Origin: Octopus vulgaris
Lineage: Eukaryota
Reading direction: 5' to 3'
Assembly (NCBI GenBank): GCA_951406725.2
Contig: OX597816.1
Coordinates: 149,978,001-150,042,000 of the forward strand
Length of the DNA stretch: 64,000 bases
Shown: positions 14,919 through 48,274 of the stretch, one piece after another
How positions within the stretch are numbered: the first letter of the stretch is position 1
How the letters are laid out: each line of letters begins with the position of its first letter
The notes under the pieces: model-generated
Database searches by the model: none
What the model saw: the letters and a program-made list of their open reading frames with translations, nothing else
Told to the model about the DNA's origin: nothing
Translations under genes and position numbers: made by a program

Positions 14919-15107
<189 letters not shown>

Positions 15108-17748: not shown

Positions 17749-17749
<1 letters not shown>

Positions 17750-17799
<50 letters not shown>

Positions 17800-17810
17800 A
17801 TGTATGTGTA
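17750..17810. repeat. Compound (GT)n(ATGT)n microsatellite
   Basis: Directly visible. Confidence 0.9.
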
Positions 17811-20800: not shown

Positions 20801-21211
20801 TACTGCTGAGACTAACTTCATTGTTCATTTCTCTAGAGTTGATAAAATAAGTATCAGTCTAGTATTATAGTTGATAAAAATTAATAATACACCTTCTCCA
20901 AAACATTTGTGCTTTGTGAAAAGTAATTATTTAATATCTCCTACATGACATTGGATTTTATAGCTGTACCTATTTTTAATCATCCCTCAGACACTGCAAA
21001 TAATTTAATTATTTTATTATATGATCAGGTCAAATGAAATTTTCATTTTGATTTGAATTCCATTGCCATACTTTTTGAATTCTAGAGTTTAATAATAGTC
21101 TAGTGAAAAGAGATCCTACTCCTTATTTATCTTTATAACTTTGGCATGTTGTGAGCGCAAATTGCCATCATCATGAACTGTGTTATTAATTCATTCTTTT
21201 GCCTATAAAGA

Positions 21212-21216
<5 letters not shown>

Positions 21217-21254
<38 letters not shown>
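21217..21254. repeat. (GA)n microsatellite
   Basis: Directly visible. Confidence 0.9.
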
Positions 21255-21265
<11 letters not shown>

Positions 21266-24200: not shown

Positions 24201-25548
24201 TTTTTAACAAAATGAGAAGAAAATTTAAAATAAAATGAAACACAAAACAAAATAAAAAACTTGAACTATGAATATTAAAACAAACTGTATGCTGACATTA
24301 TTTTCTTCTTGATGAGGCAAATAAGCCTTATATTTCAAAATGGAAAGAGGAAATTATATTTACCCAAATCTTTTTCTAGTTATTAGCTGAAAGATTTTTA
24401 GAAATCTTCATGAAATCACAGTGATAAATCTAAAGGAGTGTATGTCGGAGGGTGGTCTGCCATTGTGGTTTATAAAAGGAATAACTTGTCTGATATTCAC
24501 ATGATAGTTGAAGAAAGGAGTATTGAAGAAAGACACTAAGGGAATGGTTTCAGTAGTATAGGAACAGGATGTAGGAACAGAATCAAGAGAAAAAAAGACA
24601 AGCACAACTGTTCATCTATATGTAATATGTGAAGTTATACAAGTAAGAATGTAGCAAAAATTGCATCCGAATGCCTGCAATAAGTGCAGAAGGAAAACAA
24701 AATGTATAGACACAGTAATCCACTGGAAGTTTTGTGATAATAATTCGATGGAATTTTTGTAAGGGGTTCAGCTTTGCTTGCACACGAAAGAGATATGACT
24801 ATTGGGCAGGAACAAAAATGGAAGTCTTTGAAAACAATAAAGTGAAGTAGCTATGGGACTTGACTTTACAAACTGAAAGAATAGAGCAGAAGCTAGATAT
24901 TGTAGTCACTGATAATAAGACAGTGTGTCTTGTAACTGACAAGATTTTTGATACCAGAATCAAGAAAAAGTTAAAAGCAGAGTATTATAGAGAGCTGAAG
25001 TATCAGATTATCAAATGGAACTAAGAAGTTAACACAGTTGAGACTTGAATGTAAGATCTTGGCATTAAGTATTAAAATAAGAAATAATGGATTATATGAT
25101 TGAAGAAAAAATAGAAAATAGATAGATAGATAAATAAATAGACTGCAAATTTTTAAAATTATGAATAAAAATAAAAGTATGAATTTAAATGTTAAACTGA
25201 AAGTAAAATGGTAGTTTTTGGCCATGTTCTTACAAACAAGTCTAGAAGAGTTGTTCCCCTTGAACAAGAAAAATTTAATGGCAAAATTTCTTTTGCACCG
25301 ATGACGGTTTTTACTCGCGGTGTTCGCTCTCGTGTTAAACATACTGCAAGTATGCATTAAACTTACATAAACTGATGAAGTGCAACTTTCATTGAATTGT
25401 TGACACGGAAACTCTGAGTCCTGAATGTAAATGTTTCCTACTAGAGTCATTTAATAAATTTAGTCCTCAATTTCTAATGATATTGAGGACTAATTCTTTT
25501 GTTGTCACATGCAGTTTATCCGCGCACGCGTGTGTGCATACGTATATA

Positions 25549-26703
25549 CAAGGTGTTTGGGCTAAATTCGATGATTGTTTTATGTCAACGACAATGGAGA
25601 ACATAGAGATTAAAGTTGTAGTTGAGAAAAAGTTAGATGACATGGAGGACTGGAAGCCATCTAAATATTGGAAAAGAGTTATACACGCTGGGTATCAAAA
25701 TACCAACGTCATATCTATTGCTCAATGTCTGTGAACAATGTAAAGGCTGTAAGACATGACATGGATAACTGTAATGGAAGCTATGAAGCTGTGGCCAGTA
25801 GGAAGGGACACAGCAGGTATTCTGACTGCATCTACATGCCAGGATTCATCCAACAACTGCAGGACAAAGTGATGGAAGATCTGAGCAAGGGAATCTGGGC
25901 ATTGGTGAAAGAAAGATGGATGTCGGAGTTGTCACAATGAAGCTGGGCTTGAATAAGGATCTTTGCTACCACTCATACAAGAGGCACAAAAGACAAATTC
26001 TGACAGCCAAGACCAAGCAGAACTGTTTAATGAAGGCAAAGGAGCTCCTAAACAAGCTGAGGCATCCTGTTGAGCTGGGGATAATCTAGTTCTGAAATGA
26101 AAAGAACTTCTGCCAGGACCAGAAGCACCACACCCAAAACAAGTGGATTGCCTATAATCCATGTGATGTCCCACATATCATGAAAACCAAGTTCCCTCAA
26201 ACTGTGATGGTTTTTGGATGTGTCTCCATTGAGGGTGGCATCATGCTGCCCCACATCCTTGAACAAGGCTTTAGGCTCAATTCAGATGGCTATGTGAATC
26301 CACAAAGAGCCAGCTGTGGCTGTTGGAGAATTTCTACAACAACACCAGCTCAATTTCTGGCCTTCTGCTTTCTACATTTGTAATCCCATGGATTACTATG
26401 TGTGGGACAAGGTTGAGAAAGATACCAACCACACTGCATGCAACATCAAAGTTGAGCTGGTGATCAAGAACAAGGTGTTCAAAGACCTTCTCAGGGACAC
26501 AATGAGGAACACATGTGCCAGGTTATTGAACCATCTTGAGGCCATGATGGAAGCTGAAGGTGGCTACTTTAAGTAAACTGTTATCTCCCATCCATAAACT
26601 AGTTGATATTTTAAAATTTTCTAAGATACTTTTATTTTTTGATGGGATATTGTGTTTTATTTTTACTTCTGTGCAAACAGTCAAATTTAGCCTGAACAAC
26701 CTG
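25549..26703 (+). mobile_element. Tc1/mariner (maT-like) DNA transposon, degenerate
   Basis: Imperfect TIRs CAAGGTGTTTGGGCTAAATT / AATTTAGCCTGAACAACCTG with TA at the left end; transposase fragments KFPQTVMVFGCVS and FWPS...CNPMDYYVW (ORFs 26180, 26316). Confidence 0.85.
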
Positions 26704-26758
26704 TGTGTGTATATATATATTTCTACAGCTTGATACCCTTCTTAACACCAATCAGCCT

Positions 26759-26796
<38 letters not shown>

Positions 26797-26799
<3 letters not shown>

Positions 26800-29583
26800 T
26801 TAGCTTTCGTGGACTTGGAGAAAGCATTTGACAGGTACCCTGATCCCTTATCTGGTGGGTGATGCGGAAACTGGAGATTGATGAATGGTTAACCCTTTCG
26901 TTACCAAACCGCCCGAAAAAAATTTTGGTTAATGTGACCAAGCCGCCCCAAACCGCCCGAATTTACCTATTCATATTTAAATGAGAATATCAGAGTAAAT
27001 CTCTTTAGTACATTCGTGAAAACACGTATTATACTTTGTAAACAGTTCAACTACAGTTTTGTACAAAAATCGAAGTGTAATTTTAATTCCATGAATTATG
27101 GGAGATTTTTTTCCGAAATTTGTTCCTATTGTGTTTTCAAAATTTGTAATTCTGACAAAAAATGGATACGAATTTCATTATATCAAGCAGCGAGTCAGGA
27201 TTCGAAGGATTTTCTACTGAAGACCTTCATAAATCTAACTCTATGACTGAAAAAAAAAAGCATGTGGTATTTGATAATGAATCTGATGTTTCATTTTCCG
27301 AAAGTGAAAACAGTGAATCTGAGAGCTCCGATAGCGATAAAGAAAATGAATTGGCACCTGAATGGAGTGAAAATTTAAAAACTGTTTCTTTCGGTGATTT
27401 TTCTGAAGAAACTGGACCAAGCCACAGACTTTCCCAGAAGAGTAAAGCCTTAAACTATTTCTTTTTACTTTTTCGAATGAGCCTATTTGAAATCATTACG
27501 GCGGAAACGAACCGTTACGCTAAACATAAATAAAACGAAAGAAAGGATAGTTTGTTATTTCCCACAACCTTAAATGAAATTAAGGCCTATTTTGCCATAA
27601 ATATTATTATGGGTATCAGAAAGTTACCCAGAATAACAAATTCTATCGTAAAATTTTGTTGTATACCCAATTGAATATTAGCTAATAACCCATTTTCTAT
27701 AGCGATGTTTGAACAAAATGTTAATAATTTTATATATTGTTGAATTTACCTGTATCTACCTGCAATTAGAGTCACTTTGTGACAAAAATTATAGTATAGA
27801 ATTGGTTGAGAACATTTCATTAAATTATCTTCCAAAATTCATGTTAATATATTGATAAATAAAAAAGTTATAGTTGTTTAATGAAACCAGACTAAATTTA
27901 TGATTACGTTAGAAATTAATTGAAACACATAAGGGGTGTATTTTGGTCAGAAATATAGTAACGAAAGGGTTAATAAGGGCTGTACAGACCCTATACAGAG
28001 AGGCCGTTAGTAAGGTTAGGATTGGCAATGAGTATAGCGAAGAATAATTCCGGGTAGAAGTAGGGGTCCACCAAGGTTCAGCCCTCAGTCTCCTTTTATT
28101 TATCATAGTCCTTCAGGCAATAAAAGAGGAATTCAAGATGGCTTACCCCTGGGAGCTCCTCTAAGCTGATGACCTGGCCCTCATAGCAGAATCACTACTA
28201 GAACTAGAAAAGAAATTCCAGGTGTGGAAGCAAGGTTTAGAATCAAAAGGCCTTAGAGTCAATGTAGCAAAGACCAAAGTTCTATTAAGTAGGAAGGCGA
28301 ACTCATCACACACCCACTCAGGTAGGTAGCCTTGCTCGATCTGCAGAAAAAGTGTAGGTAGAAACTCCATAAGATGTACCCAGTGTAAGCTATGGACACA
28401 TAAGAGGTACAGCAACATCAAAGGAAGATTAACTGAGAAGATAGCTTTCGTGTGCGGCAGATGCACAGGAGCAATAAACTCCACAGATGCTCAGAAAACA
28501 GATTCCATCACACTCCAGGGGGAGAAACTAGAAGTAATTGATAGCTTCTGCTACCTAGGTGACCAAGTTAGTAGTGGGGGTGGAAGCTCAGAGAGTGTTA
28601 CCACTAGAATAAGAATAGCCTGGGCAAAGTTTAGAAAGCTTACTGGTGACAAAGGATCTCTTGCTCAGAGTGAAAGGTAGATTGTACGATGCATGTGTGC
28701 GAACTGCCATGCATCACAGCAATGAAACATGGGCCGTAACTGCAGAGGACATGCATAGGCTCGAAAGAAATGAAGCTAGCATGATCCGTTGGATGTGTAA
28801 TGTCAGTGTGCACACACGACAGAGTGTAAGCGCCCTGAGAGAAATGTTGGACATAAAAAGCATCGGATGTGGCATGTAAGAGAGACGTTTGCACTGGTAT
28901 GATCATGTACTATGGATGGATGAGAAAATATGTGTGAAGAAGTGCCACTCCCAAACAGTTGAAGGTATCTGGGGTAGAGGTAGACCCAGGATGATATGGG
29001 ATGAGGTGGTTAAGCATGACCTTCGAACGTTGGGCCTCACAGAGGCAATGATGAAAGACTGAGACATCTGGAGATATGCTGTGACAGCAAAGACCCGACA
29101 AATAAAGTGAGTACATGGCTGTATCCTACACCAGTTTTGAATAACCAGCCCCAGCCCATTCAAAAGTACCTTGGATCGTAGGACAACCTGCTGAGCTTGA
29201 GGAAACCTATTGAGTCAAGTACATCAACATCAAAATAAAAATCAAATGGAAATTGTAGTTGTGATACCCATGCCGGTGGCATGTAAAAAGCACCATCCGA
29301 ATGTGGCCGATGCCAGTGCTGCCTTGACTGGCTTCCATGCCAGTGGCACGTAAAAAGCACCAACTGATCGTGGCTGTTGCCAGTCTCCTCAGGCCCCTGT
29401 GCTGGTGGCATGTAAGAAGCACCCACTACACTCACAGAGTGGTTGGCATTAGGAAGGGCATCCAGCTGTAGAAACACTGTCAGATCAGACTGGATCCTGG
29501 TGCAGCCTCCTGGCTTCCCAGACCTCGGTTGCATCGTCCAACCCTTGCTAGCATGGAAAATGGATGTTAAATGATGATGATGA
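26797..29583 (+). mobile_element. 5'-truncated RTE-clade LINE, interrupted by a piggyBac element
   Basis: RT motifs YLAFVDLEKAFDR, GVHQGSALS, L*ADDL, FCYLGD and RIRIAWAKFR, a zinc-finger-like CxxC region, and a (GAT)n tail; multiple stops and frameshifts. Confidence 0.92.
26893..27969 (+). mobile_element. piggyBac-superfamily element, internally deleted (1077 bp)
   Basis: TTAA TSD (26889-26892, 27970-27973); perfect 12-bp TIR CCCTTTCGTTAC / GTAACGAAAGGG; ORF 27162-27533 and its continuation (YFFLLF...IITAETNRYA...TTLNEIKAYFAINIIMG) resemble a piggyBac transposase N-terminus. Confidence 0.92.
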
Positions 29584-30679
29584 TATATATATATATGTGG
29601 CTGGTTGGCATTAGGAAGAGCATCCAGCTGTAGTAACAATGCTAAAGCAGACATTGGAGTATGAGGTAGTCTTTGGACTCATCAGATCCTTGTCAATCCA
29701 TCCAACCCATGCCACCATAGAACATGGAAATTAAGTGATGAATATGATATTCTTTTAAAAGCTTCTAAAGTCACTTTGTTCAATAAGTCTCCGGTATGAA
29801 TTACAGCTCTGGAACATTGGCAAGTTAAAGATGCCTAATGATGATTTCTGATGGGATAAAGCCACAATTTCAAAAGTTTAGGTATATAATCAAGATGGAA
29901 TAGTTTCTTCACCATATCTTTAAACAAATGCAATACAATAATGTAAAAGATGGGGAAAATGAATAGCTGCTAAAGATGAGCTCAATTTTCTTTCAAGTAC
30001 ATTGTATTAAACCACTATTTAGCCATAAATTCAACACACAACAAGGTATTGAAGCAAATTCCGATTGGAGATATTGAACTAATTCTTGAATAGTGCTTTT
30101 GTGATTGTCTGTTCAAGGTAAATATAAATTGCATTTACTATCAATGTAATTATAAATTTCTCAATGTTAAACAGTTTATCAGATCTATTAATCACAGTAT
30201 GGATTTGGATTCTATTGGGGAAACATATATATGTATTGAAATATACATCTTCACTGGTGCTGAGAAGAAGGTATAGAAATGCTAGCATAAAAGATTGCTG
30301 TATAACTGAAAAGGCCATTAAGGGTGTGAAAGCAAGGAAATAACTACATCATCATAGATAATGACTGAAATGCTGTAGGACATGCATTACTCAGTTGAAC
30401 AAGGGAGGAGACTTCCAGTGACTGATATTGCAGTATCATCATCATCATCAACTCTTCAAAAGACAAAAGAGATGCTTTAAAGAGAAGTAACTACAGAGGT
30501 GTCAAATTAACTGACAATGTTAAGTAACAGACTGAGTTCTAATGCAGCTAAGGAATTAAGTTAGATGAGATGAAGTCTGGATTTGTATTATGATGCTTCT
30601 TCCTAGTGAGATAATTAAAGAAGGTCTCAGCAAAGGGCAAGTCTCTAGCAGTAACTGAGCTGGAGAAACCTTTTAACAA

Positions 30680-31790
30680 AGTATAATGTTCTGTAGCCTG
30701 GGGGTTGCTAAGAAAATTAAGCATAGATGAACAGGTCGTGAAAGCTGTACAGCAAAGTGAGAGTTGACAAGAGATTTGGAAAGCAGGTTGGTGTCCATCA
30801 GACTCAGTTCTGATCTTCCACCTCTTCAATATAGTTTTTCCATGATATAGTAGAGAAGTATAGGACTGGTTGTCCTTGGGAATTTTTGTAAACCAATGAC
30901 CTAAATCTTATAGCTGAATCTGTTGAAGAATTTGACAAAAATTCCAAAAGAGAGGTTTTAAAGTAAACTGAAAAAAAAAACACATTTTGATTTAGCAAGA
31001 AACTCAAATCTCTACAGACATCTAGGAAGTATGCATGCTTGATATGATGAAAAGGTATAGGTATGAATTCTTAATTGTTAATCCAAAGTAAATTAGTGGT
31101 GAGCAAGAAGTACAACGAGAATACAGGAATATGTAAGCAGCAGGTAAATAAAAGTGGAATACTCAGCAGTAAGAGTATCCATGATATAAACGCTCAGAGG
31201 GATCCCCTAAAGTAGTTGATAGCCTTCATTACCTAAGTGAACTATTTAACAATGGAGAAGGCATTCTGAAAATATAGTAACCAGAGTAAGAACGAGTTGA
31301 AAAAAGTTCAAGGAGCTGAAAAGGATTATTTTTCCAAGTTAAGGGCAGATTGACTGATGTATATGTAAGAAATGTAATGCTGCCTGATAGTAAAATTGAG
31401 TAATCAATGCAGAGGATATATGAAGGCAGGAAAGAAATAAAATTAGCATGCTTAACTTGATGTGTAATGTTAGTGTTTAAGAAAAACAAAGCACAAATGA
31501 GCTGTGGGAAAAATTAGGTATAACTGCAATCAGATGTAATATGCAAGGCAGAAGATTGAGCTGGAATGGGGATGGCATATTGGTAAAGAAGACCGAAACA
31601 ATCCAAGTGGAAGGAATAATAAAAAAGGAAAACCAAGCAAGGTATGGGAAGTAGTGAAAACAGATTTCAGGAGGCTGAACTTCCTGAAGGAGAAGACAAA
31701 GGACAGCAGCAAATGATGAAACACTGTGTTGGAGAAGACCCAGCGAACCCATGCGAATTTGGAAAAATGGATGTAAACTGATTTCAACAC
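30680..31790 (+). mobile_element. Old degraded RTE LINE fragment
   Basis: Diverged match to the RT and 3' region of the 26797-29583 element (ggtgtccatcag, gacctaaatcttatagctgaatc, cccatgc...tggaaaaatggatgtaaa). Confidence 0.7.
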
Positions 31791-32433
31791 AGATTAAATT
31801 ACTACAAGTTGCATTTAGCTAAGCCAACAATATGCTTGAGTATCATTCAAATCTTACTTGGTTTAAACCCTCAGTGGCCTAGCTCCTAGCCATAAAAGAT
31901 ACCAGTACTTCAGACCTCACAATTATAGGAAATTAGAGCAATATAAAATTGACAAGGATCTCATTAGCTTAAAACATTGAGTTAAATTCCCCATTTGGAT
32001 ATTACTTGAATAAAGTGGGAGGAAGAATAACAAGGGAACATTTGCAGACATTTGAGTGACCATATACACAGTACACAGTCACTCGATCTTCAAGAAATAG
32101 TAGCCAAATATTCTTCAAATCATAAAAAAAAATGAATGACACATTGAATAAAGATCGATTAGTTGTGCTTGGAATGCTTTTAATCATAGGTCTATTCTTT
32201 CATCATCAACAACGACAACAACAAAAGGATGCATTTGATAATGTAGTTTTGAAAATGCATTTAGAGAAAGGCCTTTGTTAGAATGGGGTCTGATTGATTA
32301 GGTATCAGTTATGATCTAAGGCTAAACAATATCAAGAATTTAAATGGAGGATGAGCTCCACAGAGTAGTCTTGCTCATGATAGCCATATGAATCATAAAA
32401 CATGCCATCAGTAAAATAAGAATAACAGACATA

Positions 32434-32594
32434 CGCGCAGGCATGGCTGTGTGGTAAGAAGCTTGCTTCCCAACCACATGGTTCTGGGTTCAGTCCCAAT
32501 GCATGGCACCTTGGGTGAGTATCTTCTACAGTAGCCTCAAACCAACCAAAGCCTTGTGAATGAATTTGACAGATAGAAACTGAAAGAAGCCCGT

Positions 32595-32637
<43 letters not shown>

Positions 32638-32850
32638 TTCTCTGTGTGTGTGTGTGTCTTTGTATCTGTATTTGTCCCCCCAGCCCATTGCTTGACAACC
32701 AATGTTGGTGTGTTTATGTCCCCGAAACTTTGTGGTTTGGCAAAAGAGACCGACAGAATAAGTACTGGGTATACAAAGAATAAGTCCTGAGGTCAATTTC
32801 TTCAACTAAAGGCAGTGCTCCAGCATGGCCACAATCAAATGACTGATATG
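32434..32850 (+). mobile_element. tRNA-derived SINE with internal (TA)n/(TG)n microsatellite
   Basis: A box tggctgtgtggtaag, B box gggttcagtccc, body ending gaaagaagccc, then a microsatellite and the tail cttgacaacc...gaataagtac...ctccagcatggcc. Confidence 0.85.
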
Positions 32851-32889
32851 TGTAAATGAGACAATATGAAATAATTATTTAATATATAT

Positions 32890-33620
32890 AGGTACAAGTG
32901 TGGCTGTGTGGTAAGAAGCTTGCTTCCCAAGCACATGGTGCTGGGTTCAGTCCCACTGTTTAGCACCTTAGGCTAATGTCTTCTATTATAGCCTCAGGCT
33001 GACCAAAGACTTGTGAGTAGATTTGGCAGATGAAAACTGAAAGAAGCCCACTGTATATAATATATATATATATATAAGAATGAAGGCACATGGCCTTGTG
33101 GTTAGGGTATTTGGATTAAGATCATAATGTCATGAGTTCAATTCCCAGCAAAGCATTGTGTCCTTGAACAAGACACTTTATTTCATGTTGCTCCAGTCCA
33201 TTCAGCTGGCAAAAATGAGCAGTACCTGTATTTCAGAGGGTCAGCTTTGTCACACTCTGAATCTCCCTGAGAACTATGTTAAGGGTAAATGTGTTTGTGG
33301 AGTGTTTAGCCACTTGCATGTTAATTTCACGTGCAGGATGTTCCATTGATCAGATCAACTGGGACCCTCGCCATTGTAACCAATGAAGTGCCATATATAT
33401 ATACATACACCCATGTGTGTGTTTTGCACCCCCACCACTACTTGACAACTGGTGCTGGCTTGTTTATGTCACAGTAAGGAGTTTAGCAAAAAGAGACTGA
33501 TAGAATAAGTACCAGGCTTTAAAAAAAAGGGCAGGGGTCAATTTGTTCAACTAAACCCTTCAAGGTGGTGTCCCTTCATAGCCTCAATATAATGAGGCTA
33601 AACAAGTAAAAGAAAAGATA
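32890..33620 (+). mobile_element. Second copy of the same SINE family, with a different tRNA-SINE (about 33082-33395) nested in its (TA)n tract
   Basis: Head at 32890-33050 and tail at 33420-33620 match 32434-32850; the insert has its own A/B boxes (tggccttgtggttagg, gagttcaattccc) and a gtgtccttgaacaagacact core. Confidence 0.75.
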
Positions 33621-34112
33621 ATACAAAGTTAAGTCAGTAAGAAACAGCATGTACTTGATAAAGTTGTCCGGGTTTTCAGATGTAACACACATATGGGACA
33701 ATTATATCTTTTAATTACAGTTCACTGGTGTGCCAATATTTCTTGGTTTCTTTGTTATCTCTCTCCCCAGTGACTAATTGAATTGAATAACAGAGAAGTA
33801 ATAGTTATTATTAATATAGATTAATAGACTACCAATTCACCATTCTGATATATTTTAGGGCAAGCAAAAACAGATGAATATTTGATGCCTCGCTTTTATA
33901 CAAACAGAACACACATACATTCATATTCTTTTTTGTTCTGGAAGAAAACCAAATTTTGAATCTATTATTTCACTATCTAGCACTTATGTTATCAACGAAA
34001 GGGTCGAGGGCTGTGTTCAGCACATCACAAACAATAAACTGTTAAAAATAGTCCAACTTGCTATTTGACTGGTAAAGACATACATATATCAAGTGAGATA
34101 GGTCCTGTATCA

Positions 34113-34420
34113 CCATCATCATCATCATCATCATTGTCGTTTAATGTCCACTTTCCATGCAGACATAGGTTGAACTGGCAAGCTGGGAGGCTGCACCAGG
34201 CTCCAATCTGATTTGGCAAGGTTTCTATATTTGGATGCCCTTCCTAACACCAAACACTTTGAGAGTGTAGTGGGTGTTTTTTATGTGCTACCGGCATGGG
34301 AGCCAATTAGGCGGTACTGGCATCGGCCACGCTCATATGGTGCTTTTTATGTGCCACTGGCATGGGTGCCAGTCAAGCAGCACTGGCATCGGCCATGCTT
34401 GAAGGTGTTTTTTATGTGCC
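34113..34420 (-). mobile_element. RTE 3'-end derivative with 65-nt units
   Basis: Same (CAT)n start and ttttatgtgcca units as 7742-8230. Confidence 0.75.
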
Positions 34421-35237
34421 ACATATATGATTATACAAATACACTCATCATCAGCATTTACATCATTTTTATATATTGGAATGTATTGGACAGATTGTCA
34501 TGGTTTGAACCAGTTTCAGTTCTTATTCAGAGTTACTGCCATCCTAGATGGGTTTCACATATAAGCTCCATTTCTGGAAATGGTCTCTGTGGCTGGGTGC
34601 CCTTACTAAAACCCAACTATTTTACAGAATGTACATAACATACAGAAATACATATTAAAGTGATATGATATTGGTAAAAGAAGGAAAGAGAATAAATTAG
34701 TCATTCAACCAAATTAAATAGAGATAGATAAATAATTGATATTTAATCATTAGATGAAAATAGAAAAACTAGTTGTCTAGTTGTCATAAGAAAACAACTT
34801 TGTGTTGCTTTCTTCCAAGCATGAAATGTAGTTCTTTAAATAGCACTCCAGACAGATATTCTAACATGTAACTGTGTTTCATATGTTGTTCTTGTTTTAG
34901 TTAATATTATCATTATATGATTATTATTATTACTTGAAGATATTTTGATTAATATATAAATAAATGATCATCAGATGCGATAAACTCAGTGGTTAACTAA
35001 CTATAAAGAAAAAAATAAGATGGATTCCAGTTGCGATGTATAAACTAATTTTAATTAACAACTTATCGATAAATAGAAATGTGCGTAGGAAAAGAATTAA
35101 ACAAATATGCATCTATCTCAATATCATCATCATTGTCATTTAATGTCTGTTTTCCATATTGGCATGGGTTGGGTGGCTTGACAGGGACTGGTAAGGAGCT
35201 GCACCAGGTTCCATAGTCTGTTTTGGACTTAGTCTTC

Positions 35238-35571
35238 GTAAGCCTAGTACATATTCTATCAGTTCTTTTGCCGAACTGCTAAGTTATGGGGGACATAAAC
35301 ACACCAACATTGGTTGTCAAGCAATGGTGGTGGTGGTGGTGGTGGTGGGGACAAACACAGACATGCACATATAAATATAAATATATGTATATAGATACAT
35401 ACACACACATATGGGCTTCTTTCAGTTTCTGTCTACCAGATCCACTCACAAGGCTTTGGTTGGCCTTGGACTATAGCAGAAGACACTTCCCTAAGGTACC
35501 ATGCAGTGGGACTGAACTTGGAACCATGTGGTTGGGAAGCAAACTTCTTACCCCACAGCCATGCCTGCACC
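35238..35571 (-). mobile_element. tRNA-derived SINE (same family as 32434), inverted
   Basis: Reverse complement of caggcatggctgtg.ggtaagaag.ttgcttcccaaccacatggttc...gaaactgaaagaagccc. Confidence 0.85.
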
Positions 35572-36737
35572 TAATATGCATAATTTTTCTAAAAAAAATA
35601 GCATATTTAATAGATAGATAACTAATTGTTGTGATGTAGAATTTCTATGTTTATTTTTTATTCTTTCGTTATCTACTGATGTCATCAAAAGTTAAATACT
35701 AAACTGGCTTGTCTAAAAATATGATATTTTTTCTTAACATTCTTTTTGTACGTGTTCATCTATTAGAGATATTTTCTGAGTTCACTTTGCATTTAGCCCA
35801 AGTTGGATTGCTTTGATAATGTTTTCATCATCATCATCATCATTTAGCATCCGCTTTCCATGCTAGCATGGGTTGGACGGTTCAACTGGGGTCTGTGAAG
35901 CTGGAAGGCTTCGTCAGGCCCAGTCAGATCTGGCAGTGTTTCTACGGCTGGATGCCCTTCCTTAGTATATATTAATTTGACTGGTATTTTATATCTTTTT
36001 TCTGTCTCTAATATGCTGGTACAACAGAAATGGTCATCAGTAATATATGATTTAATCATCAATTAAAGATGTGAATTTCTCCATTCTTGTTCTTATATAT
36101 ATATATATATATGTTCACACACACACACACACTCCACGCACACGCGCGTGCGCATCTAAAAGTAACCAGAAACGTTCCATGTGGGACAAACCCGTTGAGG
36201 TTCAGGCTTTCACGGCTAGACGCCACTTGATGTGACCCTCAGGCATTAGTCTGCCAATTGGTGGCATTGTGTGATGTCATATGTGTGTCTTTGCTTTGCA
36301 GTGCCTCTCCCCTTTTCAGTCTGTCCTTTATGTCTACTCATTGATGTCAATGGCATTTTGCTGTTAATGCCACCAAAATAAACAATCTCATTGACAATGG
36401 CACAAAACTTTGAGGATTTTTGGTCAATAACTGATGAGGAATGAGCATGTCTACACCTTGTGTGGGTGTTTTTTTTTTCTGTTTTCCAGAAATTTTTTAC
36501 CCCACACACAATCATCATCATCATCACTATCACCATTTAATGTCCATTTTTTATGCTGGCATGGGTTGGATGGTTTGATAGGAGCTGGTAAAGCTAGGAG
36601 CAGCATCAGGCTCCATTGTCTGTTCTGGCATGGTTTCTACAGCAGTATGCCCTTCCTAATGACAACCACATTACAGTGTGGTGGGTGCTGTTTATGTGGT
36701 ACACCAGCATCAATGCTTATATATATATATATATATA

Positions 36738-37485
36738 TCATCATCATCATAATCGTCGTTTAACGTCCGCTTTCCATGCTAGCATGGGTTGGACGGTTCA
36801 ACTGGGGTCTGGGAAGCCCGAAGGCTGCACCAGGCCAGTCAGATCTGGCAGTGTTTCTACAGCTGGATGCCCTTCCTAATGCCAACCACTCCGAGAGTGT
36901 AGTGGGTGATTTTATGTGCCACCGACACTGGTGCCAGACGAGGCTGGCAAATGGCCACGCTCGGATGGTGTTTTTTACGTGCCACCGGCCACATTCGGAT
37001 GGTTTTCGTATGTGCCACCGGCACTGGTACCACAAAACTACAAATTCCATTAATGTTCGAGTTTGCTTTTGATTTTGTCCATTTTCACTTGCCTCAACAG
37101 GTCTTCACAAGTAGAGTTATGTGTCCCAAGAAGGAAGGTATGCATAGGTGCACTGACTACGTTCCAGGTAGGGGCCATGGGTTATGGCCTCACTTGTCCA
37201 GCCAGGTCTTCTCACGCACAGCATACTTCCAAAGGTCTCAGTCTCTGGTCATTTCCTCGGTGAGACCTAAAGAGCGAAGGTCGTTCTTCACCACCTCGTC
37301 CCAGGTTTTCCTGGGTCTGCCTCTTCCACAGGTTCCCTCAACCACCAGGGTGTGGCACTTTTTCACACAACTATCTTCATCCATTCTTACTATGTGTCCA
37401 TACCAGCGTAGACGCCTCTCTTGCACACCACATCTGATGCTTCTTAGGTCCAACTTTTCTCTCAAGGCACTTACACTCTGTCTGT
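36738..37485 (-). mobile_element. 5'-truncated RTE LINE (ORF C-terminus, 3' UTR and tail); shorter tail fragments at 35827-35962 and 36511-36710
   Basis: ORF 37238..37660 contains RRLRWYGHIVRM...RGRPRKTWDEVVKNDL, a typical RTE C-terminus. Confidence 0.9.
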
Positions 37486-39475
37486 GTATATATATATACA
37501 CATATACACATACATACATAATATATATGTGTGTGTGTATTTGTATGTGCCACACACTCTCTCTCTCTCTCTCTCTCTCTCTCCCCATCACATATACAAA
37601 CATAATATAGTCACCTATGCTGACACATAAAAATAAATACACATTATCTGGGGCCAACACTGGTAACAGTTATCGCAAAAATACCTATTGGAACATGAAA
37701 GGTTACCCTTGATATTGGATTCAATCATAATAATATAGAATTTATTACTTAATATATGAGAGGCCACATGGAAATAACAGTGACCATGTCATCAATTAAG
37801 ACATAGAAGAAGACAAAATCTAATTCAGAAATATGACAAAATATACCTAAATATTAATAAATTAAAGGTAAGAGATAGACAGACAGACAGATAGATAGAA
37901 AGATAGATAGAGAGAGAGAGAGGGAGAGAGAAACAACTGATTTTGGGAAGAGAAATTTAAATATTTCTCCAAAATATATTACTTTGCCTTAAAGATATAA
38001 AACAGTTTCAGTTAGTAAGAACATTATTCAAACTACTACACAACATCAAGTTTCTTTAGGTATATTTATAGGGGAGGAAAATTCTCTGTAGAGGTTACTA
38101 AATTATACATGTATATCAGAATTTTGAGAACTGCTAAAACAAAATGGTACATTTTTCATTAACATTCATACAGTAACTAACTACAACTCAGAACATGCTG
38201 TATGCACAAATATTACTAAACTAAACGAAAAAAATCAAAACAAAATAATGAAAGCAACTCTCTCAAAATACCTTACTATTAGATTTTATGATAAATAAAT
38301 ATGAGATTACAAATACATACATGTATGTGTGTGTGCATGTCGAATGCTGGTGTAATGGGAAAATAATTCATGCTGATGTCACTGACACCCAACTTGTTTT
38401 CTCAAATTGAAGTAGTTATACATGTTTGATAATGGACAGCTGGCATACATAACCCTACATGTAGGAAGGAGTAAAATTAATTATACCCCAAAGGATATAT
38501 TCACTAACTCCCTATAAAATATTTGTACTTTACTAAATAAGATGTCTAACAATAAGAGAGAAAGAAAGAAAAGGGAGAGAAAGAGAAAGAAAAGAGAAAG
38601 ACAGAAAGAGAGATATGCAATAGAAGCAGATTGACATGTAAAAGAAAAAAATAGATACTTAAAAATAATGGCAGCAAACTCCATGCAGTTCACAACATCA
38701 TTCAAAATTGACATTACATATATGGGTAAGATAAACAAGTCATCATGCACAATTCTACCAGGATTTCAAATAAAATGAAAAACAGACCAACAAAAAATAA
38801 TAACCTATTAAAATAATAGTTGGACATTTGCAGTCAGAATGAAGATCTGTTTGAGCCAGAGTAAAATAAATTTAGCTTTTAAAATATTAACCAGTTCACT
38901 GCACATATGTCTAATGCATATGTGTTTTAGTACATACACTCTGGCACACATACAAATACACTTGTGAAAGTATAGGTTGGCCACTTACTGGCAAAATCAT
39001 AGAAGAGAAACTTAGGGCAAAAACTGAGTCAGTGATCTAGTTGTTATTACTTAACCCTTGAGTTAACACTGATAGAGTCTTTCTTATGATCAAAGGCATT
39101 CCAGTTATGACTAAACTGTTTTTTATTCAATGTGTTTAGGACTACTTTATCCAGTGTATCCATTTGTTTTGTTCCTTTTTCTTAATACAATAAAGTGTGA
39201 TCCAAGGGAGATTTTGCAGCTAATCTTGGGGCTCAGACAAATACAGAGGTTCCAGTGGCCTGTGACTTAGTTAATGTTCATGGCTTTCGATATCATACAT
39301 CACATGTCATTAATGTTCTTAGAGGAAGACATAAATTATTGGAATTCCAATTTCCAATCCTCTTCCCAAAACTGATAAAATTAAACCTGCATTGAATGCA
39401 TTTGATCAAGAAAAATGAATCAATAAATAGCTGCATGAATACATACATAAACACACACACATACATATATACATA

Positions 39476-40285
39476 CAGGGCATGATGGGTAAATTGTTGT
39501 CATTTTATACTTTTAATTTCTCCTGTGCACATTGTTTTTGATTTTGTCGACTATACCGTATAGTAGAGTCAGTTGGGCACTGTCTGTGAGAAAAACAGCA
39601 CCATGACGCAAATAACTCTGCCAGGAATTTGGAAATAACATGTTTGGGTTTCAATCTGAGGATATGTACCAAGAGTGATAAAAATCAAACATCCAGTCAA
39701 TATTATGGTATTTAGAGTGATTACTAGTGATGGTGACATTATGCCTCCATTCATCTTTCCACATGACCTCAGACTCAACACGGAGGCCTACATCAAGTGC
39801 CTGGAGGAGGAAGTGCTGTCTTGGGTCAAGAGGGTGGTTGCTGGAAGACCCTGTGTCTGGTAACAGGAATCTGCACCATGCCACACAAACAGGAGAACCC
39901 AGTCATGGCTGTCAGCTAATTTCAGCAATCATATCATCCCTAACATCTGGCCACCTAATTCTCCTGACTGCAACCTCCTTGATTATTATGTGTGGGGTGC
40001 AGTTGAGCAAGAGACCAACAAAACTCCTTGTAATACCAAAGATGAACTGAAGGCAAGGATTATGGCAACATTCACCAACTTAAACAAGGAGACCATCCAG
40101 AAGAGTTGCAGAAGATTCCAAAGTCATCTAAGGCTGTGGTTGACGACAATGGCGATTTTACTGAAAAAATTTATTAGTATTTCAAGATATTTTTACGTAA
40201 TTTTGGTAAATATATCTGTTAAAATGAGATGTGAGTGTTATTTTCATTTTTGTGTAATTTGTACGACAGTCTGTTCACTGCACCC

Positions 40286-40287
<2 letters not shown>
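39476..40287 (+). mobile_element. maT (DD37D) Tc1/mariner transposon, internally deleted
   Basis: Starts TA-CAGGG and ends CACCCTATA. The frame reads W*QESAPCH...WPPNSPDCNLLDYYVW, with 37 residues between the second (D changed to E) and third catalytic positions. Confidence 0.88.

Positions 40288-40350
<63 letters not shown>
40287..40350. repeat. (TA)n microsatellite abutting the maT element (other TA tracts at about 11380-11420 and 26763-26797)
   Basis: Directly visible. Confidence 0.9.
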
Positions 40351-42859
40351 CATTCATCATCATTTTTATGCCTGCTCTGGCATAGGCTATATGTCTTGAC
40401 AGGATCTAACAGGTCACAAGGACACATCTGTTCCAGTGTCTCAGCTTTGGATAGCTCATATATATATATATATATATATATATAAATGCATGTAAATTAA
40501 TAAATGACAAAGTTAACACTTCATACTCTATGATATCTTGTACAACTGCGTTAATCTTCAGATGGAACATCTTGCAAGCTTGCAGGTTCCAACCAACCAA
40601 TAAAATCAACTACTATACACTGCTGTTAAACACACTGAATACTTTTTGATTCAAAGACACCATATCCTCATAACTAAGAGTACTTATTTAATACACACAC
40701 ACACACACAATTGACAAGATAAACTACAAAAAAATTTGTGTTACAGTCAAAACTCTGCAATTCACTCATCAGATACACTAACAACATGATAATTTTAAGA
40801 GAAAACAAATAATTACAACTAGGTATGCGAGATGGGGAGATAACTCAGGTAATCATCTGAGGGATTTATCTCCCTGTGTATGTGTATGCTAAGTTTATAT
40901 GCCTATCTGTGCACATACAGGTATGCCCACAAATTATATTTGCTTATGAAGTGACTTGATTTGAAAACCCGTGTTGTATCTGAAACAACTGCATTATAGT
41001 ATAGTCATAGGAGTCATTTAAAATACATGTAGTATATTTTCATCATAATAGGTAATACTGTTATAAAATAAAACAAAAGTGAATATAAACGGTATATAAG
41101 TTTTAAACGTCTACATTGATTATGATAACATTCATAATTTGCTAAACTCTAATATGGTATTATTATTTAGAATCAATTTCTTATAATGGTCTATGGTGTG
41201 TTATACATACTTATATACATACATATATATATATATTCTATGAAGGCAAGCCTCTCAGCATGCCTTTTTCGTCGTACTATTATCAAGTTTTAAATCTCAG
41301 CATTGTTTCATTTTGATGTAACAATGATCCTCTTGGTTCAGCAATAACAACCACAATTTCTCCTTTTCTCTCAGCCTCTCTCTCTATATAAAATAGCTGA
41401 GGGAACATGGAAGTTTTCAAACATCCAAACAAGAGGTTCATACCTGTTAAAAGCAGAGTGTCAAGTCCAGATATAACTCTCAAATGACTTAGTTCACTGA
41501 AATACAAATAAATTTAGTAGGGCAGAATTTAATTTAACATAAGACATAGTTAAACTTTCATGAACTAACAAAGGTGTCTAATTTCATCAACCATAGACAA
41601 AAGCAAGTTTAAAAGTACACATATAAGGGCACACAACCACATAGCTAAAGCATTGAACTACCTACTCATGGAACATGAATTCAAATACACTACAAGCCTT
41701 CCATTATGTTTCTGCACTTTATTCTAGATCGTCTCAGAAAAGAATTGACAAATTGTATCAGTCCACCTTACTATTGTATCAAGGATATGTTCTGATTACA
41801 TGTTATATGAACTTAAGTTAAAATCATAAAACAGGAACAACACAACCTGGCGTATATGTTCGTTGCTTATAAGGAGTTTTGCAGTGTGTATACATACATG
41901 TGAGCACTGTATAGAAAACAAGCTGAGCCTGCAACACACACACATATACATGTGTATTTGCACACACAAACAGACACACACATGTATGCATATATACACA
42001 CACAAATGTGCACACACACACACACACACACATGTATACACTCACACACACACATGCATACATGGACATATACATACAAATATACATGAAAACAGAGACA
42101 AACAGGATAACTGAAATAATGTATATTGATTTCTCACATTGTGACATAGAAATTTGCAGGAGTGTATTATAATTGATTTAAAAGGTTCTCCAAAATAACT
42201 GGTATTCCTTTATCAACCCTACCCCATGCCAATGGATGAGCAGCAAAGTTGAGCATTACAGGATTTGAATTGAGAATACACAGAAATACACCAACTAAAT
42301 GCAAGGCATTTAATCCAACACTCAGCTTTTTCAGCTACTCCAAATACACACAGTAAGCAAACTATTGGAATTTATTGACACAAACTTTTGCATACAAAGC
42401 AGCTTCCAAACAATACAAAACTTCTCAAGAGATAATGCTCTGCAAAAGAACTTTTAAAAACACTTAGCATCAACAATTACTAAAAACCTAAAAGAAAAAA
42501 ATATAATTGTTTGTTGGTTGGTTGGAAATAAACCAAAAGTGAGGAGAGGAGCAATAGCTAAAATAAATTAATAATCAAATAAACAAACATCAGCTAACAA
42601 GGGCACATAAACAGTAAAGGCAAACAAAATACATATATGCACATGATATGTGTGTGTGTGTGTGCGTGTGTGCAATAACTATTTTGTCATGCTAACATGG
42701 CTTAGGAGAAAACTGAGGCAGAAATTTTGACTAGATGCTCTTCCTTTCCCAACCCAAATAGGACTTTCTTTCAACAGGAATATATATATATAAGCTTGTA
42801 TGAATGTGCGCTGGTGTGTGTATACTCATATATTACATACACACATGGAAATTTAATCA

Positions 42860-43680
42860 AAGTAATGTGGTTGCCCTAGACATCAGCAAAGTTCTTGACA
42901 ATGTCTGGTATGCAATTCTATTTAAATGTCCCACCTAAGGGTGACATAAGCCTCCTATCAGTTAAACAGATTTCACCACTGTCAAGTGTTTTGATGAAAA
43001 TCTTTGTTTCACTTTCAATCAACTCTGGCTTGCCCCAGGGTTCAGTTTTATCCCCCACTCTTTTCCTTCCATACATCTATGACCTACTTGTCATCCAACA
43101 ACACCCACTCTTATGCAGAAGGTAAACCCTTTAATCATCCCTAACTTTTCCCAACTAAACATCATCTACACATAGCCAATCTGTACTGATCCCACAAAAG
43201 TAACCTCAAAAATATCCTCTATGGGTACATGCTAGTCTTGTTTTTTTTTCAATAGCAAAAAGACTCAAGCGCTATTTATATTAAATAAATACAATCACAC
43301 CACATTAAACATGAGCAGTACTCAAAGTGTTCACATTTGCTTCAAATGTTAGGCTTCACTATCACTGATAATCTCTCCTGGTGAAAGAACATACTAAACA
43401 TAACTAGACTGTATCCCAAAGATTAACGCTTCTTTTCAGGATCAGAAAATTTTTCATTGTTGCCCTACGAAGCTCATGTGAAACCCATAATGGAGCATTG
43501 CTTCCACATCTAGGATGCTACTGCTGCTACACATACAATCACCTCTAACACATCCAGAGAAAGGCCATTTAAGTGATTGGCATAATATCAGTCATGGACA
43601 TGCTCCAGCATCTGGCCACAGACACACTGTCTCTTCTCTGTTTTATTTCTGCAAGAACTATGTTTACCTCTGTTGGATGG
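42860..43680 (+). mobile_element. Degraded non-LTR (CR1/Jockey-group-like) RT fragment
   Basis: ORF 42895: INSGLPQGSVLSPTLFLPYIYDL, the RT motif GVPQGSVLSPxLF..INDL. Confidence 0.75.
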
Positions 43681-44384
43681 TCTTGAATATTGTGTGTGCA
43701 CATACATGCATACACAAGTGTATTTGGAAGTTTGCTTTGCAACAACATGGCTTTGAGTTCAGACTCAATGCTTGGCATCTTGGGCCAACTAATGCCTTCA
43801 AGTGAAATTAGTAGAAACCATAAGGAAGCCTATTTTGTGTATGTGTGTGTGTGTTTGTGTGTGTGTGCATGACTGTCTTTGATTCTAACATGCTAGGTCT
43901 GACAACACTCATAAAGCAGTGTCTGCATTCATGTCCTATAACTTAGCAGTGCAATAAATAGAAATAATTGAAATAATTAAGATATTAGAAACATAAGTAT
44001 CTTAATTGATATAGTTGATTAAAATCTTCATCAAGACAGTGCCCCAGTATGGACTCAGTCAAATGATTGACACAAATGAAAGAGATAAAAGAAACTATTT
44101 GTCTATATATTCAGAAGATCAAGTCAAAATGAGGTTTACAAGCTCACCTTTATAAGGACATACATATACACATTTATGCTATTCATATATACATATTCTC
44201 ATACATACACATATGTAGTATCCATATATACAATATAGTTGTATATACATGTATTTTCATACAAACACAAATACACTATTCATATATACCTATATATGTT
44301 TATGCAAATATATATTTGCTTATATACACTTGTACATTATTCATATATGTATATATGAATACTTATACATTCACACACACACAC

Positions 44385-44780
44385 ATCATCATCATAATTA
44401 TCATCATCATCGTTTAACGTTCACTTTCCATGCTAGCATGGGTTGGACGATTTGACTAAGGACTGGCAAATCAGATGGCTGCACCAGGCTCCAATTTGAT
44501 CTGGCAGAGTTTCTACAGCTGGATGCCCTTCCTAATGCCCACCACTCCAAGAGTGTAGTGGGTGCTTTTACGTGCAACCGGCATGAGGGCCAATCAGGCA
44601 GTACTGGCAATGGCCATGCTCAAATGGTGTTTTTTACGTGCCACCTGCACAGGAGCCAGTCCAGCGGCACTGGCAATGACCTTGCTCGAATGTTTTTTCA
44701 TGTGTCAGTAAGGCGACACTGGTAACGATCACGCTCAAATGGTGCTTTTTATGTGCCACCAGCACAGAAGCCAGTTTTAT
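44385..44780 (-). mobile_element. RTE 3'-end derivative with 65-nt units
   Basis: Near-colinear with 7742-8230. Confidence 0.8.
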
Positions 44781-45607
44781 ATATATATAGACACACACAC
44801 ACACACACACACATATATATTATAAGTATATATAAATATAAATAGCATTAAGTTTATTGAATTTTCTGTTTTGTTTTGCTTTCTGTGATTGTAGAATTAA
44901 TAATCATTTTGAAAATATGTAGTGAAGTAGCAGCAAACCACTAAAGCAATTTAAGTCAGATAGGAGCATGACAAATATAGAAAGAAAAATTATTGCAGTT
45001 TCCATGTCAAAGTTTTAAAATTGTGATTGTCATATGAAATTTTAATCTAAACTGGTTTACTATATATAACTAAGTACTATGAAAAGAATTTATCATAATT
45101 TAAATCTAAATTACTGAGATAACCTTAATTGTCATCCTAACTCACATATGAAGAAAATAAGTACTTTCCCATCTTCTCTGATTGCACTTTTTTGATTGTT
45201 GATGTCTGCATTTTAACTTAAACATAAGAAATATATAAAGCTGTAAAAAAGATAACCACAAATTGAGTATATAGAAAATTATAGTTTCTTAATCAATATT
45301 AGATATATTTTTTAAAATTCATATATAAAATAACCAATTTGTTACATTACTCAATGTATTCACTCTATGCTGTGACATACTCAGATGTTCTAACACTTCT
45401 GACTAGTTTTGCTGAAAAATCTCTGAAAAGAGATAGTCCTTAGATATTTACCTATTGAAAATAGTTGATAGACAGATTGATTGATATGTTTGGAAGGGCT
45501 GCTCTAAGTAAGTCAAGCACTAGCATACCGATGGCACTGTATTCTAAGGTCATAGTTGACATGCTTAAAGTTAAAATTAAGCACCAATTGATGCTGGTAA
45601 TTCTCAC

Positions 45608-45613
45608 CTGGGG
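45608..45613 (-). CDS. Cav1: Putative 6-nt Cav1 microexon CCCCAG in the IIIS3-S4 linker (adds Pro-Ser)
   Basis: Minus strand reads cttctttttcatcttcctttctttgtccaaccag|CCCCAG|gtgaga. Phase 2 to 2; it gives [16 protein letters not shown] and restores the six-residue linker. Confidence 0.65.
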
Positions 45614-48173
45614 CTGGTTGGACAAAGAAAGGAAGATGAAAAAGAAGTGATGATTTTTTTCTTCATAGATAAAGCAAAAGAAAAAGATAATTTACTAGGC
45701 CGAAACATTTATGGATTTTAACTACTTGTGTAACAATAGGAGCTGTAAGTACTTGAACTATCACTCACACAAACACACTTCTTTACTGCATCTGACATTA
45801 ACCAAATTAAGTACAAACTATATAAAATCATTTTCAGTTAGCAAGCTAATCAAATACATAGCTTTAGAAAGATTTAGTTACAACAATGTGAATTTTTTTC
45901 ATAAACCCATCTATCTGGATATTTGCTCATTGATGTGTAGCAATGATAGATAGGATATTTCTGTAAGCATGGACACAAAACACAGCAACCTGTAATCAGA
46001 TATATTGACATCAAATTGGAAAGAAACAGAGCAACAGTATATATAAAAAAAAACATGTATGAAATATTAAAATTCCCAAGGAATGAAATAATCATTTAAC
46101 ATTTTGCAGGGGTCAACAAGAAGCATACAAGTTGTGGCATTGTTTTCACAGAGTAGAGGACTGTTTCAATATAACTAGTTATAATATTGAGAAACATAAA
46201 TTGAATATTAAAAAAATATCTGGAAATAATATGAATATTGTTTCTCATCAAAAGTACATAAAAAATATGAGTTAATTATTTTGTAAATTTCCAGAGTATC
46301 TCTCTGTTTAGTAATGATGTTTTTTTAACTAGACTTTGATAAAACTAGTTTTTCTGGAACATTTTTCTTTCTTTCTTGTGTTTTAGATATTCATTTTGAA
46401 AATAATTACAAAAGTTCTATTTTGACTTTAATAAGAAAAGAAGGAAGCAGGAAAATTCAGAATATAACAAAAACATAAACAGATGCATATACATATACAT
46501 AGATATATATGGACAAATACTGACTTCTCACACTGATAATAGGTTTCAAGTTTGTTGGGATGAGAAAATGAAGTTGTGTAAAATTGTTGCCTTTCAGAAA
46601 AGCATAAACTGTCCAAGTAAGACAAAGTTTATCACCAGGCTCTCTGAGAAGTTTTGCTGTTCACCAGCTTTTTGAAATCATTGATTTCAGGGACACATAG
46701 ATTCCACAAGCCTGAAAGCAGTGAATTTTAAAGGTCAGTAAAAGTTTAGAGTTCAATAAAACTGAAAACAATTGATACACAGATGAACATCATCATCATC
46801 TGCATTTAATGTCCCTTATTTCATGCTGGTATGGATTGGATGGTTTGACTGGAACTAAGAGGCCAGAGAACAGTGCTAAGCTCAACTGTCTGCTTTGACA
46901 TAGTTTCTAGAGCTGGACACTCTTCCTATGCATGCATACATATTACATATATACCTAAAGAAAGATTTTCTTAAAAGTTATTAACTATGTGAGTGTGTGT
47001 GTAAGAATTGCTTTAATTATGTCAAAGCATAATTAAAAATGAGTTTATTCAACACATTACTACAGTAGAAGCTGTCTGGGTTTGGTGGGGGATTTTAAAT
47101 GGTGAACTACTAATTGGATTTAATGAGTAAGCTCCAGCATATCTTGTTTATAGTGCTATACTTATAATAGAAGTATTCATCATAATGGATGATGTGCAAA
47201 ATTAATGAATACATTTCCTTTGCCGTTAAAGGATACTTGTCAGTTTTAAGGCATGAAAGAGAGAAAATATAATTTCATTCTGTATAGGATGTTGGTCTAT
47301 TGCAGGTAGAATTCCCAGATGATTCTGCATTTATTTCTGAGATCAGAAGAATTAAGTCAGTGTAGAATTATGTTCTTTTCAGAAATACAACAAATCACCA
47401 GCAGCAGTTTTGAACTTGCGACCTTTCAGCAGTTAAGTCAGCACTTTATCCTCTCTGCCACTTTATCTCTGTAGTTGATATGAATTGAAGTTTATCTCAA
47501 CTTTTATAGTTGTAAAAGGTTTGAAAGCCAGACATTGCTTTCTCTCTCTCTTTTCTTGCTCCTTAACTAGGAATGGTAGTCTTTCATAGATTTTGATAAT
47601 GGGAAGATTTTTAACTTCCATCCACCAATCATGTTATCACCTAATTACAATAAGGTGTACTAGGGCATTGTGGGTCATAATACACCACTCATGATGGAAC
47701 TCAAACAGTATACCAGTTGGTTGTTAATGAACTAGCATGGAAATTGAAAGAATATTGAGTGCAAAGGAATACTACTGAGTGTAATATAGATAATCAATAA
47801 GGAAGATGTAGAGTATTATAAAGTAGCTCTAAAAGAATAGAGATGAAGTGTAAAGTAGACATATAGACAACTAGTTTTAAGAGTATGAAATTCAAAGGGA
47901 CACAAAGAAACACATTAACAATATAATTGCTGAAATGTAAAAAAAAAAGGATAAATTTTTAATCATGAAATAAATAAGTGGTACAAATGAACACACACAC
48001 ACAAACATGCACCTACATAAGTACATATATAAACACACATACACATTTACAAACACACACATACTTAGAAAATATAAATACACAAACCTATGTAATCAAT
48101 ATTCACCAAACACACACACAAAACTTATTCGGTCATAACCAATTGCTTAGTGAACAATTAAAGGTAAACTCAC

Positions 48174-48274
48174 TTGATGGATATAAGAGATACTCCAACA
48201 ACTAACAAGTCCAGCAAGTTGAAATAGCTTCGACAAAAGGAGCCTTTGTGAAGAACTAATCCATAACTAATGAG
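48174..48274 (-). CDS. Cav1: Cav1 exon: IIIS2-S3 ([33 protein letters not shown])
   Basis: 101 nt, ttacag acceptor, gtgagt donor, phase 0 to 2; read-through hits TGA immediately, which fixes the donor position. Confidence 0.95.

Follow-up and report, generated by a model that had tools for sequence, protein, structure and literature searches.

A 6-nt microexon candidate completing the S3-S4 linker of domain III in octopus Cav1, an L-type calcium channel

How does the octopus Cav1 gene encode a voltage-sensor linker whose two flanking exons, when joined directly, leave it two residues short? The question arises from a 64,000-nt stretch of Octopus vulgaris DNA (contig OX597816.1, positions 149,978,001 to 150,042,000, referred to here as the window), the minus strand of which carries a portion of a gene for an L-type calcium channel. 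Its assignment to the Cav1 (L-type) alpha-1 subunits is based on 99.8% identity to Octopus sinensis Cav1 and on the domain III S3-S4 region, which is closest to Cav1.1-1.3. The exons encoding S3 and S4 of domain III are separated by 33,086 nt (Table 1), and it was proposed in the original prediction that this interval hides a microexon of six nucleotides. The sequence at 45613-45608 of the minus strand is indeed as claimed, with a pyrimidine tract, a CAG acceptor, six nucleotides and a GTGAGA donor, and translation of the exon joins agrees with the predicted products, SLIS-INNE-AI upon skipping and SLIS-INPSNE-AI, with six linker residues and an intact reading frame, upon inclusion. The reading preferred here, to which we assign a probability of roughly 0.55 as a whole, is that the site is a coding Cav1 microexon, which is likely included by default and would thereby restore the ancestral six-residue linker, while skipping would be a minor route to a channel whose activation is predicted to shift by a few millivolts.

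Table 1. Features of the Cav1 gene in the window (positions are those of the window)
Feature	Position	Strand	Remarks
Cav1 domain III exon, end of S2 and S3 (LISYG...SLISI and two bases of Asn)	48174..48274	-	donor at 38 nt, counted from the S3 Asp codon start
Upstream intron	45614..48173	-	2,560 nt, GTGAGT donor
Microexon acceptor region	45614..45662	-	TC-rich pyrimidine tract; AG-free zone of 47 nt; three YCAY; without UGC (nearest at -63)
Microexon	45608..45613	-	6 nt, phase 2; supplies the last base of Asn, all of Pro and two bases of Ser; INPSNE replaces INNE
Microexon donor and downstream flank	45516..45607	-	GTGAGA; four YGCY, one GCATG (weak evidence of regulation)
Weaker donor	45446..45454	-	6.7 bits; 162 nt past the microexon acceptor
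Downstream intron	15088..45607	-	30,520 nt; longest of 12 introns measured (others 900-4,040 nt)
Cav1 domain III exon, NEAI and S4	15000..15087	-	acceptor at ancestral position

To score the strength of the splice signals, matrices were built from the octopus Cav1 gene itself, using 13 of its acceptors and 12 of its donors. With 18.1 bits, the microexon ranks first among the 2,816 AG..GT pairs of 3 to 30 nt in the 33-kb interval; the next-best of the 96 pairs enclosing 6 nt reaches 7.8 bits, and 18.1 bits is not attained by any AG..GT pair across the 64 kb of the plus strand. Acceptor (8.1 bits) and donor (10.0 bits) lie within the ranges of the gene's own exons (4.4-15.9 and 7.7-13.1 bits, respectively), so that the site has what is expected of a coding microexon, namely 3 to 27 nt between AG and GT and splice signals like those of its host gene. 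Two further candidates of the same interval, one of 9 nt at 20264-20256 and one of 16 nt at 47929-47914 (both on the minus strand), were set aside, as their peptides are absent from the protein records compared and the latter also has a poor donor. Shuffled intervals yielded an equally good 6-nt site in 5 of 160 shuffles, and an equally good site of any length 0.18 to 0.58 times per interval. The latter frequency speaks for a chance look-alike, that is, for an octopus channel which truly has a four-residue linker and for RefSeq residues originating from elsewhere, as does the lack of the two residues in an O. vulgaris gene model and in cuttlefish records. Since the training set is small, the score by itself is suggestive only, and the protein records decide.

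These records match the site precisely. All five O. sinensis RefSeq isoforms of Cav1, which are members of one protein cluster, contain INPSNE, and the 13 window exons together with the microexon match O. sinensis P0158 at 474 of 475 residues without a gap. The interval contains 71 hexamers able to encode Asn-Pro-Ser at the junction; AG..GY flanks were found for only two of them, and a pyrimidine tract plus a GT donor solely for the one at 45613. Furthermore, Pro-Ser cannot be obtained by extending the flanking exons in the window, as one extension reads into a stop codon and the other gives Asn-Phe-Ser. Thus, the site predicts exactly the residues seen in the sister species, which no other well-flanked hexamer does, and a chance look-alike is very unlikely. 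RNA alignments inform the building of RefSeq models of this type, and we infer that the INPSNE peptide derives both from the exon at 45613-45608 and from RNA data. The microexon is very likely real.

Comparison of the same exons with the O. vulgaris model P0262 gives an exact match except for a gap of two residues, which corresponds to the skip form; the match assigns the window to the O. vulgaris/sinensis group. The skip form is also what a gene model missing a frame-preserving exon gives, and the exon was either missed or skipped in this model. The expectation that annotation pipelines would overlook the microexon therefore holds for P0262; however, it does not for the RefSeq models of O. 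sinensis, which already carry it. The skip form is also found in the Sepia pharaonis model P0399 and in three cuttlefish-like Logan proteins assembled on 5, 8 and 1 contigs (14 in total), which share 98.5-99.2% identity with S. pharaonis records. Their length of 2,006 to 2,085 residues, together with contig sizes of up to 7.6 kb, indicates that these Logan sequences are most likely spliced transcripts. Judged from these sequences and P0399, skipping can apparently dominate in a coleoid; inclusion may occur in cuttlefish as well, because rare variants are dropped from assembled contigs. When both forms are compared, inclusion is confined to the O. sinensis models, and skipping to one O. vulgaris model and the cuttlefish records. 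A search for short protein fragments returned, among the best 120 of 490 matches, no octopus fragment and one further cephalopod record, P0399 in its skip form, and none of 20 sequencing runs containing the S3 exon is recorded as RNA. A literature search, with most subscription journals outside its coverage, found no paper on this octopus Cav1 microexon; a 2026 preprint on tissue-specific splicing, which includes O. bimaculoides, is silent on calcium channels in its main text (10.64898/2026.09.05.749416), and a long-read annotation of octopus has been published (PMC9699675, data S1).

In domain III, the linker from S3 to S4 is nearly invariant in length among animals. In the 468 proteins fetched, six-residue spacing was found in 301 of 328 motif matches, a count that comes from a redundant set and excludes 26 long proteins without a motif match; records of Ceratitis, Anopheles and Topomyia belong to this class. 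As stated in the original prediction, the human Cav1.2 linker has six residues, and SLIS-FGIQSS-AI can be aligned gap-free with the inclusion form. The same applies to the chains of Cav1.1, Cav1.2 and Cav1.3, and the best PDB matches of the inclusion-form peptide are alpha-1D, 1C and 1S, with 62 residues aligned without gaps. Of the 328 matches, 5 show four-residue spacing, and all of these are from coleoids: P0262, P0399 and the three Logan proteins. A scan of metagenomes covering 12 of 64 parts identified 69 loci, none of which matches the octopus linker; 40 contain the S3 motif, five of them contiguous with S4. Counted from the start of the S3 Asp codon, the S3 donor (GT or GC) falls at exactly 44 nt in 34 of the 35 non-contiguous loci of other animals. 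The S4 acceptor AG is located at -19 in 28 of 29 S4 loci. The octopus acceptor is likewise at -19, but the donor is at 38. The octopus S3 exon is hence 6 nt short of the ancestral position, a deficit that the microexon fills to the nucleotide (38+6=44), thereby restoring the ancestral six-residue linker. Two of the scanned loci, L020 and L022, contain the Cav1 S3 exon and its donor in four to five nearly identical tandem copies, all within about 1 kb, which could reflect either tandem duplication or an assembly artefact.

Two routes could have led to this arrangement. Two codons may have been deleted from the S3 exon in the coleoid ancestor and the microexon gained later, or an intron may have been inserted 6 nt inside the old exon. 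We lean slightly towards the first route, because the Ile-Asn at the exon end resembles the common ancestral Leu-Asp/Glu and because the cuttlefish records are short. The second route, which we rate at somewhat below even odds, fits the observation that the microexon also resembles some ancestral S3 exon ends.

An insert at the same spot was found in clams. Six additional residues are present in the S3-S4 linker of domain III in 8 of 10 Mercenaria and 6 of 8 Mya full-length Cav1 records (14 of 18; P0144, P0154 and members of their clusters), and their presence in some and absence from other records points to a separate alternative cassette. The clam insert resembles the octopus microexon in that it affects the same gene, the same linker and apparently the same phase-2 junction; it differs, however, in its unrelated sequence and in extending a linker that already has all six residues, with an exon structure deduced from proteins. 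In addition, an eight-residue insert in this linker was seen in P0430 of Meganyctiphanes, which is a partial gene model.

The clam records raise the possibility that the octopus exon is a cassette too, included in some tissues and skipped in others, so that two Cav1 channels with different behavior of the domain III sensor would be produced. We consider this possibility to be less than probable. The skip form preserves the frame and is found in full-length assembled sequences of cuttlefish-like origin, and the IIIS3-S4 exon of Cav2 is regulated in a cell-type-specific manner in vertebrates and Aplysia (PMC11580629, PMC10657410). On the other hand, none of the five O. sinensis isoforms skips the microexon, even though variation in the domain IV S3-S4 linker (IVS3-S4) is recorded: the isoforms differ there in four ways, with inserts of 0, 16, 20 and 26 residues, and all of them retain INPSNE. 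That IVS3-S4 varies whereas the domain III linker never does favors inclusion by default. A transcript-derived skip form was not found for octopus, and the tissue-specific switch suggested in the original prediction is so far unsupported. An alternative IVS3-S4 exon of 48 nt was located on the minus strand at about 149960076-149960123 of the contig (L072, G000:C3), approximately 18 kb beyond the window start; a search of 20 kb of G000 did not locate the smaller IVS3-S4 pieces. Comparison of P0149 with P0351 revealed that a cuttlefish-like Logan protein carries six extra residues in IVS3-S4, for which no matching peptide was found in the same 20 kb.

In the sequences flanking the microexon, GCATG and YGCY motifs are present as had been described, but their weight is low. 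The single GCATG is not extended to TGCATG, and since one GCATG is found in 14.8% of intron windows, it was rejected as an uninformative Rbfox site. Four YGCY motifs lie at +7 to +106, a number equalled in 2.1% of windows, while 0 to 2 follow the 12 constitutive exons; the three YCAY motifs upstream are equalled in 4.7% of windows. These clusters would suit a tissue-regulated cassette, but they are two modest hits among 36 tests, leaving aside the TCTT of the tract itself. The absence of UGC within 60 nt of the microexon acceptor argues against such a cassette as well. Neural microexons of the eMIC/SRRM4 class are shorter than 27 nt, frame-preserving, preceded by a TC-rich tract and an AG-free zone and found in ion channel genes (PMC8797185), all of which applies to the octopus exon; in contrast to this class, it lacks UGC near the acceptor, has no CTRAY branch motif within 100 nt of it and possesses a strong rather than a weak donor. 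This sets it apart from the gene's own 48-nt IVS3-S4 exon, which has CTAAT and TGC close to its acceptor. In flies, eMIC exons are reported to be enriched for UGC (PMC8797185), and UGC is given as present in 74-79% and absent in 21-26% of SRRM4-dependent microexons (10.1101/2024.09.17.613571). As about a quarter of these exons do without it, the absence of UGC is compatible with neural regulation.

It was also suggested that the site could act as a zero-length recursive splice site, because the exon ends in CAG|GT. Under this explanation, the site would mainly be a ratchet point that shortens the 33-kb interval; use of the distal AG would regenerate a donor and give the skip form, and the 6-nt exon would be a side product. 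A pyrimidine tract precedes the AG|GTGAGA junction, the regenerated donor would score 8.4 bits, and the weaker donor downstream (Table 1) could define a host exon of 162 nt, which would read N-P-R-stop; this resembles an arrangement described for human cells, in which a two-step route to 6-nt exons is known (PMC6224609). However, an AG|GT end was rejected as evidence of recursion, since 7 of the 12 constitutive exons have one. The distal AG, with 4.0 bits compared to 8.1 bits for the proximal one, is weaker than all 13 constitutive acceptors. A donor like the downstream one is present in 19% of 270-nt intron windows; it could aid definition of the microexon, or it may be a chance occurrence. 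Moreover, recursion at this position would remove only 2.6 of the 33 kb. All five O. sinensis RefSeq isoforms keep the six bases. The recursive site thus found no specific support and is very unlikely, whereas inclusion of the microexon as a default coding exon agrees with these isoforms.

S3-S4 linker exons of calcium channels are a well-known kind of exon, and exon 31a of Cav2 also comprises 6 nt. Like the octopus microexon, exon 24a of Cav2.1 and Cav2.2 and the Aplysia Cav2 equivalent, exon 27, contribute to the S3-S4 linker of domain III. These exons, however, belong to Cav2, comprise 12 nt, lengthen a linker that is already longer and are shown to be alternatively spliced, whereas the octopus exon belongs to Cav1, comprises 6 nt and restores the ancestral length when included. 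Exon 24a of Cav2.1 (SSTR) shifts V50 from -11.8 to -15.4 mV, i.e., by about -3.6 mV, while that of Cav2.2 (SFMG) reportedly has no effect (PMC11580629). The Aplysia exon (AFDS) is described as excluded in sensory neurons (PMC10657410), and Nova2 has been named as a regulator of exons 24a and 31a (PMC12149502). Cav2 exon 31a, Cav1.2 exon 33 and Cav1.1 exon 29 are likewise S3-S4 linker exons that tune gating (PMC12149502, PMC5279877); they differ in that they belong to domain IV, for which octopus Cav1 has separate alternative exons. Flexibility of IVS3-S4 is reported to tune Cav1 activation (PMC5279877). For voltage sensor III of Cav1.1, a loop insertion is described to shift excitation-contraction coupling by 60 mV, whereas the activation of the current is not shifted likewise (PMC11358481). 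Skipping of the octopus microexon is predicted to shift activation by a few millivolts.

While the kind of exon is familiar and the peptide is already contained in RefSeq, the coleoid-specific shortening of the linker, its repair by a microexon and the parallel insert in clams are what the octopus exon contributes. In a linker that is otherwise nearly invariant, the deletion of two residues in coleoids and its undoing in octopus provide a clean pair for testing the effect of linker length on voltage sensor III, and the octopus exon offers an accessible example of how a microexon arises in a conserved gene. It also follows that an octopus Cav1 channel cloned from the model without the exon may represent a minor or non-native form. 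It is tempting to speculate that, after coleoids shortened the linker, a newly gained octopus exon came to switch, under tissue control, between the ancestral linker and the shortened one, and that clams gained their cassette separately. We regard this combination as unlikely; if true, it would mean that L-type channels repeatedly acquired a splicing dial on voltage sensor III. Apart from the channel exons, a Cav1 intron contains, at 55357-54458 of the minus strand, disrupted frames that resemble reverse transcriptase and include a YVDD motif, along with a possible GIY-YIG stretch; they may belong to a Penelope-like element.
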